Source of the DNA: a virus
Taxonomy: Duplodnaviria > Caudoviricetes
Reading direction: 5' to 3' (one strand)
IMG/VR virus record: IMGVR_UViG_3300017700_000643
Coordinates: 1-40,056 of that record
Length of the DNA stretch: 40,056 bases
Below the pieces are notes generated by a model. It had not been told where the DNA came from and did no database searches. It saw only the letters and a list, made by a program, of their open reading frames with translations. The translations under genes and the position numbers were made by a program. Positions within the stretch are counted from its first letter, which is position 1; every line of letters starts with the position of its first letter. Positions 124 to 40,056 of the stretch are shown piece by piece.

Positions 124-3084
124 GATCAGGACCTACCAAGCTACGAGGGCGCCGAAGTGATGCAGGACGGTCTGCGCTCAATGGGCTTCGACGGCATCAC
201 GCACATGGGTGGCGGCCGGGTGAACAAGGAGGGCGCGCGGCACCGGGTGTATGTAACGTTTGACCCGGAACAGAGCAAATCTGCAACGGGCAACATCGGC
301 ACCTTCGACAAGGCCAGCCCGGACCTCCGCTACAGCGTGCCCAAGAAGCGACCACTCCCCGCCACGACATCATGGGCAGCACCGCCCGGCAGTCCGCCGG
401 TTAACCCAGCGGCAGGCGGCGTATTGGCCCCGCAGCCTTGGACGGTATCGGAGCCTGGCGCTGGCGATGCCTTTATCCGCGGCATCCAAAACAACAAGAT
501 CGACATGAAGCGGGTACGCGATGCCATCGCCCAGCAGTTCGGCCGCGTGCCGGAAGCCCTGGACCCGTACCTGGGCGAAGAGCTTTACCAAGGCAAGGTC
601 GCTGCGCGCGTCACCGAGCTGCACGAAAACACCGTTGAGCCGATCCTGAAAAAGATTGCGGTAGCGGGAGCGAATGCTGGCGTCACGCTGGACGATGTGA
701 ACCAGTACCTGCACGCCCGCCATGCACCGGAGCGCAATGCGGCCATGAAGGCAATCAATCCGAACATGCCGAACAACGATGCACTGTCCGGCATGAGCGA
801 TGCCGACGCGGCCACCGTTATGGCTGGATTCCGCACGGCCGGCAAGGATGCCGCCCTGGCGCTGATCGTGAAGGACATCGACCAGCTCAACGCCGACACG
901 CGCACGGCGCTGGTTGCCGATGGCCTGGAAGACGCTGCAACCGTCCAGGCCTGGGAAGCCGCGTACAAGTTCTATGCGCCCCTGCAGCGTGACGTGAAGT
1001 CCAGCGGCACACCCAAGGGAATGGGTTTTAGCGTCCGTGGGCCTGAGGCCAAGCGCGCCGTGGGCTCCAACAAGGATGTGGTCAACATCCTGGCCAACAT
1101 CGTGGCGCAAGCCGAGACGGCCGCCATCCGTGCCGAAAAGGCCAAGGTCGGCCGCGCGCTGCTGGAGATGGCGAAGGCCTACCCGAACCCCAATTTTTGG
1201 AAGGTGGACCAGGCCCCCACCAAGCCGAGGATCGACCCCAAAACCGGGTTGGTTATCCGTGGCGCCGTGGACCCGATGTATCAGACTGCCGACAACGTGC
1301 TGATGGTGAAGGACTACGGCATGGAGCATTTCATTGTCTTCAACAAGGACAGCGACCGGGCAATGCTCACAGCGCGCGCAATGAAGAACCTTGACGCTGC
1401 GCCGATGAACAAGATTTTGGAGGTTGCCAGCAAGGGGACGCGATTCATTGCCTCCCTGCTGACTCAGCGCAACCCGCTTTTCTGGATGACCAACTTTGCA
1501 CGCGACATCCAGGGGGCACTTATCAACCTGGAGGGCACCGACGCCGAAGGCCTGCAGGCCAAGGTACTGGGCAACTTGGGCAAGTCCTTCAAGGGTATGC
1601 ACGCAATTGTCCGGGGCGACAGTACAGGCCAATGGGCGCGCTACGCCAAGGAAATGCAGGAGGCCGGCGGCACCACGGGCTACATGCAGCAGTTTGAAAA
1701 CTCTGACGCCCGCATGAAGAACCTGCAGCGTGAGGTTGACCGCATGGCGCAAGGTAAAGCTGACCCGCGCAAACTGGGCCGGATGGTGCTGGATTTTGTC
1801 GATGATTACAACGACATCATCGAAAACGCCGTGCGCCTGTCCGTCTTCCAGACTGCCCGTCAGGCCGGCGCTTCGACCATGAAGGCGGCCAGCATCGCCA
1901 AGAACATCACGGTCAATTTCAACCGCAAAGGCAACCTGACGCCCCCCGTCAATGCCCTCTACATGTTCTTTAACGCCTCCGTCCAAGGCACGGCCCGGCT
2001 GACTCAGGCGCTTGTCACCAGCCCGAAGGCGCAGGCGCTGGTAGGCGGTATAGCGATCATGGGCTTTGTGCTGGATGCGCTCAACCGAGCCATGTCCGAC
2101 GATGACGAAGAAACCGGCCGCAATCGCTACGACCTGATTCCTGAGTTCGAGAAGTCCAAGAACTGGATTTTCATGAACCCCATGCGCCCCGGCGAGTATG
2201 TGAAGGTGCCGCTGCCGCTTGGCCCCCACGTCTTCCATAATGCTGGCCGCCTTATCTCGGACGCGATCTTCCGCAAGGACCCGCGCAATGCCAGCGAATA
2301 CGGCTGGTCAATGGCAAGCACCGTGCTGGACGCATTCAGCCCGCTGGGCGCTACGTCGTCGGTCGGGCAGCTCATCGCGCCGTCCATCCTTGACCCTGTT
2401 GTTCAGATAGCTGAAAACAAGTCGTTTACCGGCGGGCCGGTGTACAAGTCGAAGGATCGCGGCTTCGGCCACATAGACCCCAAGCCAGCCTACACCCGGT
2501 TTTTTGAGAACACCCCGGACCTGTGGAAAGCCGCATCCAAAGGGCTCAACGACATCAGCGGCGGCGACAAGGTCAAGCCGGGCCTGGTGAACATCGAGCC
2601 GGACATTCTCAAGTCGGTTTTCTACACCATGACCGGCGGCCCCGGCCGGACGCTGGACCAGGCGCTGGACGCCACCCAGTCGCAGGCCCGCGGCGACACC
2701 CCAACCGTCAACCGCATTCCGTTCGCCAGCCGCTTCTATGGCACCAACGACGACCGCCAGCGCGAGCGGGCTTACTACGATGACCGTAAGCGCGTGGCGG
2801 ATGCCAAGACCCAGTTTGACTATTTCGTGAAGTCGGGCCGGGCTGACCTGGCGCGAGAGGTGGCCACCGAGCTGGGCGAGGGGAATCCAGCCAAGGGCCG
2901 GAAGATGATGCTGGAATTCAAGACCGCCGGCAAGACCGTGGGCGCGCTCAATAAGCAGATCCGGGCGGAGCTCGAACAGCAGGAAAAGGGCGGGGACCGC
3001 TCGGAGCAAATCAAGACACTCAAGGCCCGCCGCGTCAAGGTGATGGGCAACGCCGTACGCGACGAAAAAACCGAGGACGAATAA
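1..3084 (+). CDS. C-terminal part of the giant polyvalent virion/ejection protein (end of ART-like domain, then LPD38-like region); continues from 34528
   Basis: ORF 7..3084 is in frame with the open frame from 34528 across the junction. GFDGI...YVTFDPEQSKSATGNIGTF completes the ART-PolyVal-like domain. ITVNFNRKG...LYMFFNASVQG and EKSKNWIF...YVKVPLP are typical of LPD38-type large polyvalent proteins. Confidence 0.85.
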   Translation: MDMEAKADVAAWEKQFDDIAAYHEGGESNESWYRAAESMLADQDLPSYEGAEVMQDGLRSMGFDGITHMGGGRVNKEGARHRVYVTFDPEQSKSATGNIGTFDKASPDLRYSVPKKRPLPATTSWAAPPGSPPVNPAAGGVLAPQPWTVSEPGAGDAFIRGIQNNKIDMKRVRDAIAQQFGRVPEALDPYLGEELYQGKVAARVTELHENTVEPILKKIAVAGANAGVTLDDVNQYLHARHAPERNAAMKAINPNMPNNDALSGMSDADAATVMAGFRTAGKDAALALIVKDIDQLNADTRTALVADGLEDAATVQAWEAAYKFYAPLQRDVKSSGTPKGMGFSVRGPEAKRAVGSNKDVVNILANIVAQAETAAIRAEKAKVGRALLEMAKAYPNPNFWKVDQAPTKPRIDPKTGLVIRGAVDPMYQTADNVLMVKDYGMEHFIVFNKDSDRAMLTARAMKNLDAAPMNKILEVASKGTRFIASLLTQRNPLFWMTNFARDIQGALINLEGTDAEGLQAKVLGNLGKSFKGMHAIVRGDSTGQWARYAKEMQEAGGTTGYMQQFENSDARMKNLQREVDRMAQGKADPRKLGRMVLDFVDDYNDIIENAVRLSVFQTARQAGASTMKAASIAKNITVNFNRKGNLTPPVNALYMFFNASVQGTARLTQALVTSPKAQALVGGIAIMGFVLDALNRAMSDDDEETGRNRYDLIPEFEKSKNWIFMNPMRPGEYVKVPLPLGPHVFHNAGRLISDAIFRKDPRNASEYGWSMASTVLDAFSPLGATSSVGQLIAPSILDPVVQIAENKSFTGGPVYKSKDRGFGHIDPKPAYTRFFENTPDLWKAASKGLNDISGGDKVKPGLVNIEPDILKSVFYTMTGGPGRTLDQALDATQSQARGDTPTVNRIPFASRFYGTNDDRQRERAYYDDRKRVADAKTQFDYFVKSGRADLAREVATELGEGNPAKGRKMMLEFKTAGKTVGALNKQIRAELEQQEKGGDRSEQIKTLKARRVKVMGNAVRDEKTEDE

Positions 3085-12323: not shown

Positions 12324-12466
12324 AGGGTTCTTTTTTCTTAAACAAAGGGGTTGATTGAGTGGTTGGCTACATGGACGGCGGATGCGGGCATTCAGCTCGA
12401 ATTCAGCCCGGATGCCATGAAGAACCAGCTCAAGCAGCTATCAAAAGCGTAGCAAGAGGTGGGCAA

Positions 12467-34527: not shown

Positions 34528-37500
34528 ATGGCCCTCAAAGAGTTTACCGGCGAGCTTGATGCTCCAAAGCTGAAAGAGTTCACCGGGCTACTTGACGGGG
34601 AAGTCGCTCCAGGCCGCGATGAAGGCATACCCCTTGTATCGGGCGACCCCATGGGAATGGGCGGCGCGGACATTCTTGCCGCTGCCCAGCAACCCAAGCC
34701 GACCAGCGTTCTTGAGGGCGTGCGTTTCGACGGACCCGAAGCTCCTGCAGGCATCGACTTCAAAGCTGCTAGCGCTCGCAGCCTGGCCCAGGCCCGCAAG
34801 CTGCCCGTCGCGCGCGCTCCGAGCGAGGCCCAGCCCTCGACCCCCGTGGATCAAACTTTTTTGGATAACGCCACGCGCGTCCTGCGAAAGACGCTGGGTG
34901 GCATCAACTCCGGCACGGCCGGCATCATCCAGATGGTTGGCGATGTCACCGGCATGGATTCCGTCGCCGACTTCGCGCGTACCTCCGGCCGGGCTGGCAA
35001 GCGCTTCGCCAACAAGACCGAGGCCGGCAAGACCACCATAGAAGGCTTCACGCCCAATTCACCCGTGCAGGGCCTGCCTGGCGCGATTGAGGACGCCGCC
35101 GTGTCCATCGGCCAGCAAGTCCCAGCCCTTGCCACTGGCAACCTACCCGCGGCCCTTGCAATGATGTTCGGCCAGTCCACCGGCACCCAGTACGGTGAAG
35201 TGCGGGAAAAGGGCCTCGACATCGCCCCGGCAATTGCCAATTCCGTGCTGACCGGCGCGGCCGAGGTAATCGGCGAAAAGCTCGGCGGTACACCTGGCAC
35301 CATGCGAGCGCTCAAGGGCGCCGTCGCCGGCAATGCGCCTGCGCGCGTAGCCGCTGAAATGGCCCGTGCTGGCGTGCGCGACATCCCCGGCGAGAGCCTG
35401 ACCACCTTGATGCAGTACGGCACAGACGCCGCACCAGTCATCGGCACCAATGCCGCGCCGTCTTTCGGCGAGCTGGGCGGCCAACTCAAGAACACCGTGG
35501 CTCAAACCCTGCTGCAGGGCGGAATGATGACCGGCGGCGGTGCGGCCCTGGCCAGCGCAGCGCAGAAGATGGGCGCCGCGCCCAAGGACGGCCAGCTACT
35601 GCCCGCCGTCAACAGCGACTTTGCCGCCAAAGAAATGGCCCGGGAGATTGATGCCGCCGCCCAGGAAATTGCCGACGCGCCTACGCCACTGTTTCCGCAG
35701 CAAACCACCATTCCCAAAAGCACGCCCGCCAAGCTGCGCCCGATGCGCGCAGATGAAGCGCTAGACGGCGAACAGCCCGCACCGCGTGCAGCCCAATCAC
35801 AGAGCGCCCAAGCAGCTACTGAAACCATAGCAAAGGACTCGCTTGAAACTCCTAGCCAGACCAGCACAGAGCAAGCCGCCCCCGCGATTGACCAGGTATC
35901 AGCGCCTGCTCCAGCAAATGGAGGGGTGCAGCGCCCTGGAGCTGGCCCAGCGCTGGAAGCTGATCGCACCGAGCCCACCACGCCAACACTGAGCGAGCCC
36001 ACCAATGTCCAAAACCAAGTTGCGGCCGGAGCACCCGCCCAAGCTCAAGCCGCGCCAGATCAAGCGCCAGCGCCAGCGGGAAGCACTGGAGGCGGACAAG
36101 CCGCAGCCGGAACCCAGACCGGAGCCGGTGCAGTACAAGCCACTGGGATAAATGCCCCGGCAGCCCAGACAACGCAAGGGCAAGATGCTATAGAAAACAT
36201 AGCGCCGCAGCGCATTGGCCGGAACAATGTGCCAATGGCCGAGGGCGGTAAGCCGTTCAAAACCAACATGGCGGCCAAGGAAGCGCGCAAGCTGCAGCCC
36301 GGCATGCGCGTCATCAAGGTGGACGGCGGCTACGCCCTGGCCGAGAAGACCCGCGCCCAGTTGGCGGCGCAGGAGAAAGCCGCCCGCCGCATGGGACTCC
36401 CCCAGACCAGCGCGCGCGGCGAACCCATCCCGGCGCATGCCTTCATTGCATCCGCTGGCGGCCTGGCTGGCGCGACTCGCTCTGACATGAACATGCAGGG
36501 CAACGTCCGTATCGGAAACCGCAGCCTTTTCGCCGGCACCGGGAAGGGCTTGACCATTGAGCGGGCTACCGAAAAGCTGATCGAAGAAGGCTACCTCCCA
36601 GAGGGCGCAGGCCACGACCAGGCGCGCGAGCTCATCAAGCGCAGCCTGAAAGATCCTCAATACACCCCCGAAGGCGTGGAGCGCATGGCCGAAAAGGGCA
36701 CCGTAGCACGCTTTGAAGACCACCTTGCCGCCCAGCAGGAGGCCGCGGAGAGCGACCCGGATTTTGATCCTTTCCCGGACATGGACATCCAGGAAAGCGA
36801 CTTCGCGGGCACCGGCTTTGCAGAGGCCCCGAATGAAACCCAGCTCGAAGTACAGGCTCTGATCGCCATGGCCGACGAACGCGGCATTGACAGCGAAACG
36901 ATAATGCTTGATGCTCACGACGCCACGCGTGAAGGCACAACCCAGGATTTTTATGACAACGCAAAATCAGCCCTCGAAGCAGCCATCGGCCAAGGCCGTG
37001 GAGATAGCCGCCCAGATTCTGGCCAACAAGGCGACCCGCCTGCAGAAGGCCGGCAGCAAGCCAGCGAAGACCGCCCCGACGAAGGCCTAACCAGCTACAC
37101 GGAAGGCGATGTCCTTGCCCGCCTGGACGCCCTGGAAAAGGGCGAAAAGGATACCGCCGCCAAGGACGCAAAAGCGGACGCCGACGCCAAGAAAGAGCGC
37201 GAGCGCCGCGACATAGCGAGCCGCCAGCAGGCCAGCTCCGACAACTTCGAGCTCGGGCAGAGTGCCGACGACGCGATTAGCGGACAGGGCCGGATGTTTG
37301 CAGAGAGCCCGCAAGTGGGCTACGATGGAAATTATGAAAAAGACCTCTTCGGGGATCCCCTACCAGTTACCCGCCGAAAGGATCGGCCAGCCGAACCCAA
37401 GCGCGCCGGGGTATCTGGGGACGTACGCGCCGCCGGCAACGTACAAGCCGACATTGCCGGATCAGAGTTCTACGCAAACGCCTTCGTTGGCTCGGAAACC

Positions 37501-40056
37501 AGCCGCGAACTAGGCGCGGCGGTAGTCAGCACGCCCACACAGGCGGCGCAAGCAACCCAATACCTCTACAAGTCAGCCGTCGAGCGATTCGACGCCATCG
37601 TTACCGACAAGGCCGGGAAGCCTTTGGGGGTGGTCGGGGGCTTTAAAGGCGCGCTGGCACAAACGTCCGTCTACCCCGCCACTCTGGTGGGCGAGGCCAT
37701 CCGCATTCCAGGCGCCGCACGCATCTGGTTTTCTCACAACCATCCCAGCGGTTCGGCGATGCTTTCGCGCGCTGATGAACACCTCAACAGGACGCTTACC
37801 GACATTTTCAACGGCAGCGGCATTGAGCCTATGGGGTTGATGGCGATAGCGGGCGAAACCTTCTCCTATGTCGATGCACTGGGCGATGTCACGGAGTCGA
37901 ACCGTCCCATTCCCGCACCTAGCGACAAAATCAGCGTGCCGGTTATGGAGCGCCAGTTAATGCCTGGCGCGCTCAAGACGCGCGTTGACAACCCCTCAGA
38001 CGCGAAGAAGTACGCAAAGCAGTTCTATGAAAAGAGCCGCCAGCCCGGCATGATGCTGCTGGATTCTCAGATGGGCGTGGCGGCATGGGTGCCGATTCCG
38101 CCCAAGATGAGGGGTCAGCTTCGCGACACCGGCCAGCTTGCTGCGCTGTACCGTGCCGTCAGCCAGTCAAATGCCGGAACTGCAATCTTGGCGCATGGCG
38201 GAGAGCTCGATGTTGTGGGAGATTTCCCGGGCAAAATCACGGCCGGCAACAACGTCGCCGCAGCTCTTCAGAAGGTCGATGTCCGGGTTGTTGATTCGAT
38301 CAATGTCAACTCCGGCGTGTCCCGCGCAGAAACCGGTCAAGAGATAGCTTTGGGCCCCATGTATTCGAGGCCCAAGAGTCAAGATGCAGCACCGGCCGCA
38401 TTCCGGCAGGTCAAAACCAAAAGCGGGGCCACGGGTTTCTTGAATGCTGACATCGCCCTGGGTTCGCCGCGCTTGAACGTGCGGCAGCCCGGCGGTAACG
38501 TGACGCGGATCGACTTCGACATTCGGGACACCGCGGCATTCACACGCGCCCAAGCCGAGGGCATGTCTAACACTGAGGCAAGGGAGGCGGCCCATGTAGG
38601 CATCCTGACCATGGATATGGACAAGGCCGGCCAGTTCAAATCCCTGCGCAATATCGAGATATTCCAATCAAAGCGGGGCAACAACAGCGCGGAGAAGGTT
38701 GTTGGCTCCATCATTGCCAGCCTGCCGCCCGGCGGCAAGCTTCACATCCATGACATCCTGCCCACCGCAACGGGCTTCTGGGATAAAATGGGCGCGAAGT
38801 TTCCGAGGTCTGAGGACTTCATGGAGGCTTATCTAACGCCCGAACAATACAAGGCAGCCTATGACACCCGACCACGTACTGCAGGAGCGAGAGGACAATC
38901 GCAAGAGTCACGCGCGACCACGGACGGAACAGGAAGAGGCCGACGATCTGGAGCTGATGGAAAAGATGTTTCCGGCTCCCAACTCGCCAAAGACTCCGAC
39001 CGAGTAAGCACGCCCGACCAGGTGCGTGCCGTTCTGGCCGCGCGCTTCGGCCCCTTGGCTGCACGCATGGAGGCCCGGGGCTTCCTCAAAATCTGGGACG
39101 GCACCCAGGAATTCAACCAGACAGCACAGCGCTCCGAGCAGATCGAGGGCAAGGCACAGGGCTTGTGGGACGGCAACACTGCCCACCTCTTTGCTGACGC
39201 CATCGAGCCGGGCACCGAGATTGCCGTTCTACTCCATGAGGTAGGCGAGCACGCCAGCATGAAACAGATGTTGGGTGACGAAAAGTATGCCCAGCTTGTG
39301 AAGCGCGCCCGCGCCCTTACCCAGGCAGATGACCCCACCGCCTTGGAAGCCGTCGCCCGCATCCCTGACGACACCCGCCCGGAATTCCTCGATTCTGAGC
39401 TGCTGGCCTACATGATCGAGACAGTAGCCGCGAAGGACGCCAAGGCATCGCCAAGCGCCCGCAAGTGGCTGGCCGACATCCTGGCAGCCATCCGGGCTTG
39501 GTGGACCACCACGGGGCTATCCAGCAAGTTGCAGGACAGCTACGGCCTCAAGCTGGACCTGACGCCGGAGGACATTGCAGCCCTCGCCGTGCGTGCCGTC
39601 AAGTGGCAGGGTCAGCAGTCAGGGCAGAAGCAGGGTCGCCAGATGTCGCGCCCGGCCAGTCGTGCGCAGACCGACACCCCAGCATTTAAGGATTGGTTCG
39701 ACGGCAGCAAAGTGGTGGACGCGCAGGGCAAGCCCATGGTCATGTACCACGGCACCAGCGCCAGCGAGGGCGGCGACGCCTTCACGATGGTGGACACCTA
39801 CGCTTCAAGCTATGGCCTGATGGGCATGGGCGGATATTTCACCGCTGACCCCGAGATAGCGAACAGCTACACCACCAAAGGCCGGGGCGGATCGCCAACT
39901 GTCTACCCGGTCTATTTGTCCATCAAGAACCCCATCGACATGGAGGCCAAGGCAGACGTGGCCGCATGGGAAAAACAGTTTGACGACATCGCCGCCTACC
40001 ATGAGGGCGGGGAGAGCAATGAGTCCTGGTATCGCGCCGCTGAAAGCATGCTTGCC
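34528..40056 (+). CDS. N-terminal part of the giant polyvalent virion protein (~2,829 aa when joined to 1..3084)
   Basis: Frame 1 from ATG 34528 (MALKEFTGELD) showed no stop in the stretches I translated and is absent from the ORF track, consistent with running off the window end. JAB HNHPSG..S..D (37735-), GNAT-like (about 38590-38800), zincin HEVGEH (39235-39252), ART-PolyVal-like YHGT/GYF/VYPVYL (39673-). Confidence 0.88.
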   Translation, partial: MALKEFTGELDAPKLKEFTGLLDGEVAPGRDEGIPLVSGDPMGMGGADILAAAQQPKPTSVLEGVRFDGPEAPAGIDFKAASARSLAQARKLPVARAPSEAQPSTPVDQTFLDNATRVLRKTLGGINSGTAGIIQMVGDVTGMDSVADFARTSGRAGKRFANKTEAGKTTIEGFTPNSPVQGLPGAIEDAAVSIGQQVPALATGNLPAALAMMFGQSTGTQYGEVREKGLDIAPAIANSVLTGAAEVIGEKLGGTPGTMRALKGAVAGNAPARVAAEMARAGVRDIPGESLTTLMQYGTDAAPVIGTNAAPSFGELGGQLKNTVAQTLLQGGMMTGGGAALASAAQKMGAAPKDGQLLPAVNSDFAAKEMAREIDAAAQEIADAPTPLFPQQTTIPKSTPAKLRPMRADEALDGEQPAPRAAQSQSAQAATETIAKDSLETPSQTSTEQAAPAIDQVSAPAPANGGVQRPGAGPALEADRTEPTTPTLSEPTNVQNQVAAGAPAQAQAAPDQAPAPAGSTGGGQAAAGTQTGAGAVQATGINAPAAQTTQGQDAIENIAPQRIGRNNVPMAEGGKPFKTNMAAKEARKLQPGMRVIKVDGGYALAEKTRAQLAAQEKAARRMGLPQTSARGEPIPAHAFIASAGGLAGATRSDMNMQGNVRIGNRSLFAGTGKGLTIERATEKLIEEGYLPEGAGHDQARELIKRSLKDPQYTPEGVERMAEKGTVARFEDHLAAQQEAAESDPDFDPFPDMDIQESDFAGTGFAEAPNETQLEVQALIAMADERGIDSETIMLDAHDATREGTTQDFYDNAKSALEAAIGQGRGDSRPDSGQQGDPPAEGRQQASEDRPDEGLTSYTEGDVLARLDALEKGEKDTAAKDAKADADAKKERERRDIASRQQASSDNFELGQSADDAISGQGRMFAESPQVGYDGNYEKDLFGDPLPVTRRKDRPAEPKRAGVSGDVRAAGNVQADIAGSEFYANAFVGSETSRELGAAVVSTPTQAAQATQYLYKSAVERFDAIVTDKAGKPLGVVGGFKGALAQTSVYPATLVGEAIRIPGAARIWFSHNHPSGSAMLSRADEHLNRTLTDIFNGSGIEPMGLMAIAGETFSYVDALGDVTESNRPIPAPSDKISVPVMERQLMPGALKTRVDNPSDAKKYAKQFYEKSRQPGMMLLDSQMGVAAWVPIPPKMRGQLRDTGQLAALYRAVSQSNAGTAILAHGGELDVVGDFPGKITAGNNVAAALQKVDVRVVDSINVNSGVSRAETGQEIALGPMYSRPKSQDAAPAAFRQVKTKSGATGFLNADIALGSPRLNVRQPGGNVTRIDFDIRDTAAFTRAQAEGMSNTEAREAAHVGILTMDMDKAGQFKSLRNIEIFQSKRGNNSAEKVVGSIIASLPPGGKLHIHDILPTATGFWDKMGAKFPRSEDFMEAYLTPEQYKAAYDTRPRTAGARGQSQESRATTDGTGRGRRSGADGKDVSGSQLAKDSDRVSTPDQVRAVLAARFGPLAARMEARGFLKIWDGTQEFNQTAQRSEQIEGKAQGLWDGNTAHLFADAIEPGTEIAVLLHEVGEHASMKQMLGDEKYAQLVKRARALTQADDPTALEAVARIPDDTRPEFLDSELLAYMIETVAAKDAKASPSARKWLADILAAIRAWWTTTGLSSKLQDSYGLKLDLTPEDIAALAVRAVKWQGQQSGQKQGRQMSRPASRAQTDTPAFKDWFDGSKVVDAQGKPMVMYHGTSASEGGDAFTMVDTYASSYGLMGMGGYFTADPEIANSYTTKGRGGSPTVYPVYLSIKNPIDMEAKADVAAWEKQFDDIAAYHEGGESNESWYRAAESMLA
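35843..35992 (+). CDS. Nested +1-frame micro-ORF 1 (49 aa)
   Basis: TTG start with AAGGA RBS; MKLLARPAQSKPPPRLTRYQRLLQQMEGCSALELAQRWKLIAPSPPRQH. Confidence 0.35.
   Translation: MKLLARPAQSKPPPRLTRYQRLLQQMEGCSALELAQRWKLIAPSPPRQH
36005..36151 (+). CDS. Nested +1-frame micro-ORF 2 (48 aa, basic)
   Basis: MSKTKLRPEHPPKLKPRQIKRQRQREALEADKPQPEPRPEPVQYKPLG; host-frame codons become A/T-ending across it. Confidence 0.45.
   Translation: MSKTKLRPEHPPKLKPRQIKRQRQREALEADKPQPEPRPEPVQYKPLG
36953..37090 (+). CDS. Nested +1-frame micro-ORF 3 (45 aa) with its own promoter
   Basis: TTGACA (36887-36892)-17-GATGCT (36910-36915), CAGGA RBS; MTTQNQPSKQPSAKAVEIAAQILANKATRLQKAGSKPAKTAPTKA. Confidence 0.5.
   Translation: MTTQNQPSKQPSAKAVEIAAQILANKATRLQKAGSKPAKTAPTKA
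37334..37513 (+). CDS. Nested +1-frame micro-ORF 4 (59 aa), leaderless
   Basis: TTGCAG (37298-37303)-17-TACGAT (37321-37326), then 7 nt to the ATG; MKKTSSGIPYQLPAERIG... Confidence 0.5.
   Translation: MKKTSSGIPYQLPAERIGQPNPSAPGYLGTYAPPATYKPTLPDQSSTQTPSLARKPAAN
38861..39007 (+). CDS. Nested +1-frame micro-ORF 5 (48 aa, acidic)
   Basis: AAGG leader; MTPDHVLQEREDNRKSHARPRTEQEEADDLELMEKMFPAPNSPKTPTE; in the linker between the GNAT and zincin domains. Confidence 0.45.
   Translation: MTPDHVLQEREDNRKSHARPRTEQEEADDLELMEKMFPAPNSPKTPTE
39934..40056. repeat. Terminal direct repeat, right copy
   Basis: Identical to 1-123. Confidence 0.97.

Follow-up and report, generated by a model that had tools for sequence, protein, structure and literature searches.

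Five candidate small genes in the +1 frame of a giant polyvalent protein gene of a temperate phage

Embedded genes and polyvalent proteins

The spanin gene Rz1 of phage lambda lies within the larger gene Rz, on the same strand and in its +1 frame, and its product binds Rz; constrained regions of one frame are placed over flexible linkers of the other (PMC5295617). In Bacillus subtilis, the short peptide gene comS occupies a different frame of srfAB, a giant modular gene, and is expressed from the srfAB mRNA (PMC12915044). A similar arrangement was predicted in a phage genome of 40,056 nucleotides (IMG/VR record IMGVR_UViG_3300017700_000643; hereafter the window), in which five open reading frames, ORF1 to ORF5, lie in the +1 frame of a giant gene. 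Rz1 is a single gene that encodes a lipoprotein whose partner is known, whereas the window has five unrelated peptides, predicted to be soluble, in a single 8.5-kb gene, and they are exchanged with its modules. Unlike comS, which is single, chromosomal and regulatory, they form an array in a likely virion gene of a phage.

The host gene encodes a member of the polyvalent proteins (PMC5512222), with a RadC-type JAB pair, an ART-PolyVal domain, LPD38 and a metallopeptidase-type motif, and it stands at the end of a probable virion module. Its 2,829 amino acids (aa) join the disparate domains PF04002, PF18760 and PF18857, as is characteristic of the class, and HExxxH motifs of its type have been described among polyvalent proteins (PMC5512222, section 8). 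The main text of this founding paper uses no terms for overlap, linkers or low complexity (PMC5512222), and passages on two relatives, phi24B gp47 and PTXU04_00025, do not mention embedded genes (10.64898/2026.04.10.717836; 10.1101/2023.09.18.558157). Phage P1 packages the giant injected protein DarB with several internal proteins in a dependent order; unlike the present array, these Dar accessories are separate genes, and the likeness noted is one of arrangement (PMC12810830). Embedded +1 genes are already known from Rz1 and comS, and an array tied to polyvalent modules was not found described. The literature search, which covered sources other than subscription journals and supplements, returned no description of embedded genes in polyvalent proteins.

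Selection on the five +1 frames

All five ORFs were found where predicted, in +1 relative to the frame that opens at 34528 (49, 48, 45, 59 and 48 sense codons; Table 1). They are wholly nested in the giant gene on the same strand and start with TTG (ORF1) or ATG (ORF2 to ORF5); upstream alternative ATGs lie at 36911 for ORF3 and 37325 for ORF4. Frame-switched selection and conserved families indicate that the five are very probably real genes, and the predicted hidden +1 layer of small proteins under selection is upheld. A sixth candidate at 35753, open for 25 aa in a relative of the phage, was rejected since it closes after 3 codons in the window.

This relative, IMGVR_UViG_3300038704_000066 (locus L029, also L013), is collinear with the window apart from module swaps and about 90% identical elsewhere. 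In five main-frame domains the ratio of nonsynonymous to synonymous differences (pN/pS) between the two is 0.06-0.20 in the main frame and 1.3-3.3 in +1. The frames change places over ORF2 (0.17 in +1, 1.83 in the main frame) and ORF5 (0.14 and 2.16). Linker 400-438, which contains no ORF and served as a negative control, retains main-frame selection (pN/pS 0.23). Moreover, substitutions in the ORFs fall on main codon positions 12:3:3 and 9:2:1, as opposed to 100:39:526 in controls, so that position 1 is favoured over position 3. ORF3 differs from its counterpart in L029 by five changes, each of which alters the main-frame protein. A variant contig has 7 changes in ORF3, of which 0 of 7 are silent in the main frame and 4 of 7 in +1. 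Of the 33 differences in this contig 26 were listed, and the 19 of these that lie outside ORF3 include 16 that leave the main-frame protein unaltered (p 0.005 by Fisher's test on codon position). Selection on ORF1, ORF3 and ORF5 is judged from pairwise values, one variant contig and alignments.

ORF4 has at least 16 homologues besides the window and 10 matches in protein databases. Its core is open in +1 in 17 of 17 JAB-bearing genes, whose JAB domains are 48-82% identical to that of the window. Silent main-frame bases are fixed as the +1 residues require (A in 17/17 with 1.6 expected, G in 17/17 with 3.3, C in 17/17 with 5.1), and first main-frame bases vary among the homologues. A main-frame Tyr codon supplies the start ATG in 13 of 13 cases with G as the next base, and the other four genes have upstream starts. 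Overall identity is alike in both frames (0.43-0.47 in the main frame and 0.39-0.40 in +1, against 0.68 and 0.34 in the JAB region) because the main frame is under constraint at either end of ORF4. Judging from these columns, ORF4 is truly dual-coded; no conserved RNA structure was found over it. Left out of the set were L028 (broken frame), L040 and L041 (weak matches) and L034 (treated as identical to L020). Upstream of the JAB pair, a main-frame Y-x-x-D-L-F-G motif at 37333-37353 is invariant in the 17 homologues. We take it to resemble a beta-clamp binding motif.

ORF2 was traced most widely, with homologues in more than 20 phages. A pattern built from its +1 residues only matched 24 viral contigs, 23 of them nested in a long ORF in the -1 frame and one by chance. 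When 1.84 billion proteins were searched with a five-sequence profile, 28 clusters matched; 26 have lengths of 35-63 aa, and the named members are annotated 'hypothetical protein'. Columns outside the search pattern are also fixed (A in 22/23 with 4.3 expected, T in 20/23 with 3.9, T in 20/23 with 5.1), although such column counts, for ORF2 as for ORF4, come from related homologues and are not independent trials. The start is ATG in 21 of 24 and GTG in 3 of 24 at the same place. Loci reached through ORF2 alone yielded homologues of ORF1 (L062, L079), ORF5 (L062, L079) and ORF3 (L056, L063, L068). The three ORF1 homologues share the same stop context, the three of ORF5 each follow the same GNAT-like domain, and ORF3 has eight homologues (nine with the window). 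The ends of the ORFs are kept across homologues. The column and Shine-Dalgarno (SD) tables omit L059 (a chance pattern match), L060 (the same contig as L029) and the near-duplicates L069, L071 and L076; alignment A9 omits P0014, P0026 and P0032.

Codon usage in four of the ORFs fits +1 better than the main frame, with preference scores of +0.17 for ORF1, +0.56 for ORF2, +0.21 for ORF3 and +0.52 for ORF5; ORF4 scores -0.13, and among 292 other windows the mean is -0.45 and the highest score +0.03. Since phage codon usage is better in +1 and the main frame is unconstrained there, the linker, and not the small gene, would be the passenger over ORF1, ORF2, ORF3 and ORF5. For these four the direction implied by 'overprinted micro-genes' is therefore reversed. 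The idea that a GC-rich small gene by itself keeps the giant frame free of stops was rejected, as ordinary genes of this phage have similar stop densities in their two shifted frames (2.94 and 2.72 per 100 codons).

Composition agrees in part. The hand counts of main codons ending in A or T were exact (28/49 over ORF2, 0/20 at 36301-36360), and third-position A, given the amino acids, is elevated in all five ORFs (p <= 0.01). Five ATG ORFs of at least 45 codons are rich in third-position A (>= 0.25), where synonymous resampling gives 0.06 (maximum 2 in 1000). This third-base bias is not diagnostic by itself.

Several points tell against the five being genes. Third-position A is also elevated in three ORF-free linker pieces (p 0.001-0.009), and composition alone is for this reason not decisive. 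Length is at the chance level (9 ATG ORFs of at least 45 codons, 6.4 expected from synonymous resampling). The pairwise pN/pS of ORF1 is only modestly below 1 (0.60 in +1 and 0.83 in the main frame; 0.46 and 1.5 in its core). A claim that most of the ORFs have an SD-like leader or a promoter proved weak: the SD energies of the five starts in the window are equalled by 23-65% of the gene's 65 +1 ATGs, and no sigma-70 promoter was located in 35000-40056, which leaves own promoters and lysogen expression unsupported there. Family by family, SD energies of -3.5 kcal or lower are enriched in ORF1 (4/4), ORF3 (6/9) and ORF5 (3/6), as against 21% of 2344 background ATGs; ORF2 (7/24, marginal) and ORF4 (2/13) have no clear family-level SD.

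Table 1. Positions in the window of the ORFs, of the giant gene with its modules and of the palindromes, with members of a further +1 family at other loci
Feature	Position	Strand	Evidence or relatives
ORF1, 49 aa, TTG, weak SD, amphipathic core; weakest of the five	35843..35992	+	homologues L029, L062, L079
ORF2, 48 aa, basic, fixed C-terminus	36005..36151	+	pN/pS, pattern matches, protein clusters, model
ORF3, 45 aa, basic, probably one amphipathic helix (judged from sequence)	36953..37090	+	9 homologues including the window
ORF4, 59 aa, Pro/Tyr-rich, main-frame motifs at both ends	37334..37513	+	17 homologues; 10 protein-database matches
ORF5, 48 aa, acidic C-terminal half	38861..39007	+	homologues L029, L062, L079
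Giant polyvalent protein gene, first 1843 codons	34528..40056	+	runs over the circular junction to 3084; 2,829 aa in total
Giant gene, C-terminal part: end of ART-PolyVal and LPD38 (about 2122-2727)	124..3084	+	Pfam PF18857 E 2e-40; PHROG 616/14770
Small main-frame module, aa 740-815, contains SD and start of ORF3	36745..36972	+	in 8/48 giant genes
RadC-type JAB domain pair	37462..38367	+	Pfam PF04002; Foldseek match to RadC 2qlc
GNAT-like domain, lead only	38395..38862	+	Atlas 0.88-0.90 to GNAT clusters; no Pfam match
Zincin-like metallopeptidase-type module, HExxxH motif	39010..39612	+	motif seen in sequence; no Pfam match
ART-PolyVal domain, N-terminal part	39718..39993	+	Pfam PF18760 E 1.9e-12
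17-bp palindrome, Comamonadaceae repeat type	35815..35831	.	11 nt before ORF1 start
17-bp palindrome, second copy	36187..36203	.	35 nt after ORF2 stop
Alternative +1 family members	L001:5072-5269, L016:2880-3023, L032:6645-6779, L036:6765-6956, L038:6744-6905, L042:7686-7850, L043:7616-7792

Possible roles of the small proteins

At the curated cut-offs of Pfam, PHROGs and PADLOC none of the five ORFs has a match; PDB chains searched with the ORF2 and ORF4 profiles gave no match, and single-sequence peptide searches returned nothing. Atlas scores for ORF2 are about 0.8, to unnamed clusters only, and the +2 frames, checked with four profiles only, gave no matches. ORF1 to ORF4 are basic (K+R is 13/48 in ORF2) and ORF5 is acidic. 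The ORF2 model has a single helix (16-29) between extended Pro-rich arms (predicted local distance difference test, pLDDT, 83; predicted template modelling score, pTM, 0.39), and a peptide of this shape is predicted to need a partner. None of the five resembles a stand-alone enzyme, and we infer that they bind partners.

The reading that we favour, tentatively and at somewhat less than even likelihood, is that these are module-tied binding peptides made from late mRNA. Ribosomes would initiate at them internally on the late mRNA that carries the giant gene, a route suggested by SD enrichment in three families and by the interchange of ATG and GTG. Each peptide would bind the adjacent module as a chaperone or clamp before packaging, and so help the giant protein to remain soluble, inactive or fit for packaging. 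The five may differ in mode of action.

Association with modules was followed in 48 giant genes, many of them partial, so that a domain or ORF missing from a locus need not be absent from the phage. The module at aa 740-815 occurs in 8 of the 48 and is followed by ORF3 in 8 of 8; a ninth ORF3 follows a weaker copy. A full GNAT-like domain is found in 4 genes, all 4 with ORF5. The ORF4 profile finds 18 of the 22 genes that have JAB and 1 of the 26 that lack it, although 17 of those 18 helped to build the profile; JAB and ORF4 are both missing from L029. The expected co-variation with the adjacent module is thus seen for ORF3, ORF4 and ORF5. The predicted placements also hold, in that the end of ORF4 lies within the first strand of the JAB pair and the start of ORF5 lies in the last helix of the GNAT-like domain, itself a lead only.

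Toxin-immunity pairs of polymorphic toxin systems likewise tie a small gene to an exchangeable enzymatic module, the immunity gene lying downstream of and outside the toxin gene. The proposal that each ORF encodes an inhibitor of a neighbouring toxic domain did not hold up in this form. Unlike in toxin-immunity pairs, three of the five (ORF1 to ORF3) flank modules without known toxic activity, and no A-rich +1 ORF stands beside the ART domain. A search of 961 genome slots with the ORF4 profile found nine new loci, of which 3 precede JAB and 6 do not. In small samples, ORF3 and ORF5 each occur exclusively beside their own module, which does not hold for ORF4 or ORF2.

Other observations also weigh against strict pairing, and with it against module binding. 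Starts and stops are embedded in the codons of the neighbouring domain, so co-travel is also expected from linkage alone. L024 has JAB and no ORF4, most of the 10 protein matches of ORF4 have tails unlike the JAB-overlap type (judged by eye), the neighbours of ORF2 differ widely between phages, and four distant GNAT-like domains precede different +1 frames. In some giant genes the ORF3 slot is taken by another +1 family. This alternative family has a clear SD in 7 of 7 members (Table 1) and ends at the position of ORF3's end in the window.

With gene labels assigned by eye, 4 of the 6 JAB-free ORF4 loci follow one kinase-FHA gene, and 3 of these 4 are damaged. The ORF4-like sequence lies immediately 3' of that gene in L052, L085, L087 and L089, with four different tails: one copy is intact, one has a stop, one has its start out of frame and one is fused to a membrane-protein-like frame. 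The relative in L086 comes after two genes, one phosphoesterase-like and one small (labels again by eye). A further homologue (L050; L053:6835-8689, minus strand) overlaps the start of a 575-aa gene without a Pfam match; this locus adjoins a CRISPR array with cas-like genes and resembles a broken-up polyvalent locus.

Nearly as likely as module binding, chiefly for ORF2 and ORF4, is that the genes are real but autonomous, their peptides acting on host proteins, nucleic acid or the capsid and merely riding in the linkers. Where ORF4 lies next to unrelated genes and stops interrupt the giant frame (L050, L085, L086), its core stays open and recognisable; ORF2 retains its basic and terminal motifs regardless of the downstream neighbour, its basic character fits such a role, and one slot is filled by different families. 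There is precedent in comS, whose product acts on MecA/ClpCP and not on SrfAB (PMC12915044), and in the several internal Dar proteins packaged by P1 (PMC12810830). However, ORF3 and ORF5 were observed only beside their own modules, an ORF4-like frame persists with a divergent JAB subfamily, and damage has struck 3 of the 6 JAB-free ORF4 copies.

It is improbable that the act of translation matters while its products do not, through coupling, mRNA protection or tuning of giant-protein output. Tandem frames with short gaps (12 nt between ORF1 and ORF2; 0-3 nt in L078 and L066) and the overlap of the L050 ORF4 frame with the next gene's start would suit this explanation, but residue-specific conservation over dozens of homologues exceeds what an open frame needs. 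Quite improbable, too, is that ribosomes enter the +1 frames by frameshifting and use them as alternative C-termini of truncated giant proteins. A database protein, P0032 (192 aa), does join a giant-like N-terminus to ORF2 sequence (by eye), and the SD is weak at ORF2 and ORF4; against this, conservation begins at the Met, where ATG and GTG interchange and where ORF4 keeps its ATG, the ORF1, ORF3 and ORF5 families have SDs, and ORF4 lacks a conserved RNA structure. Chance ORFs in compositionally odd linkers, with which ORF length, the A-rich ORF-free linkers and the weak SDs would agree, are very unlikely given frame-switched selection, the conserved families and the main-frame selection kept by an ORF-free linker, which contradict chance for ORF2 to ORF5 and least firmly for ORF1.

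The phage, its relatives and wider meaning

The stretch is a complete circular phage contig with a 123-nt terminal repeat; one contig from a freshwater metagenome, which may be its source, spans it with zero differences. Integrase, CI-like repressor, primase-helicase, terminase, portal, capsid and tail genes were seen, and the phage is a circular temperate one. The host is likely a member of the Comamonadaceae, because the closest JAB homologue (79%) sits in a Polaromonas genome. The giant gene comes after the terminase, portal, capsid and tail genes. Giant proteins homologous to the C-terminal part of its product occur in 355 phage records, including Stx phages, Bcep22 and Ralstonia phages. 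Among homologues, phi24B gp47 was detected in virions and proposed to be an ejection protein (10.64898/2026.04.10.717836), and the LPD38 protein of PTXU04 (PTXU04_00025) is critical for infection (10.1101/2023.09.18.558157). By analogy, the giant protein of this phage is likely packaged in the virion. In L029 the JAB pair is replaced by another module and the ART domain is absent (giant gene aa 931-1286 and 1710-1918); on sequence comparison, these differences are clean examples of module exchange.

Two copies of a 17-bp palindrome bracket ORF1 and ORF2 (Table 1) and a third lies at 12437-12453, giving 3 in the window where 0.04 are expected. A stricter form occurs 78 times in a Polaromonas genome and 108 times in a Rhodoferax genome, with 1 for the control in each. 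In the 48 giant genes it is found 11 times (1.25 expected), mostly in N-terminal linkers. The palindrome may be a host protein site within the phage gene.

A survey for A-rich +1 ORFs gave 100 candidates in the 48 giant genes, which were collected through these modules and are not a random sample, and 0-1 in three shuffles; the candidates fall into 12 families that recur, with 40 singletons besides. In the cultured phage Bcep22, the DarB-like gene for gp75 (NC_005262.3, L080) contains a strong candidate, an A-rich +1 ORF of ~107 aa from its ATG (codons about 1446-1570, z 14) that is unlisted in the RefSeq record. L019 (L005:188-763) has two +1 ORFs in tandem, 84 and 106 aa long, in which the stop of the first adjoins the start of the second; by eye, the second resembles the Bcep22 frame.

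These patterns raise the possibility, as yet a speculative one, that polyvalent ejection proteins are two-layer genes in which a domain and its cognate +1 peptide are exchanged as a unit. The linkers would then be shadows of peptide genes, and several peptides per phage would chaperone, silence or accompany the injected enzymes. The phi24B authors themselves ask what keeps a 300-kDa multi-enzyme harmless and how it comes to be packaged and ejected (10.64898/2026.04.10.717836). Giant polyvalent proteins are widespread, with homologues in Stx phage virions and one required for infection, and a conserved layer of small genes tied to their modules would provide direct candidates for taming, packaging or ejecting the giant protein. 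Annotation would accordingly be missing several genes per phage, 'disordered linkers' can arise as by-products of a second reading frame, and deleting or recoding these linkers would remove genes unnoticed.

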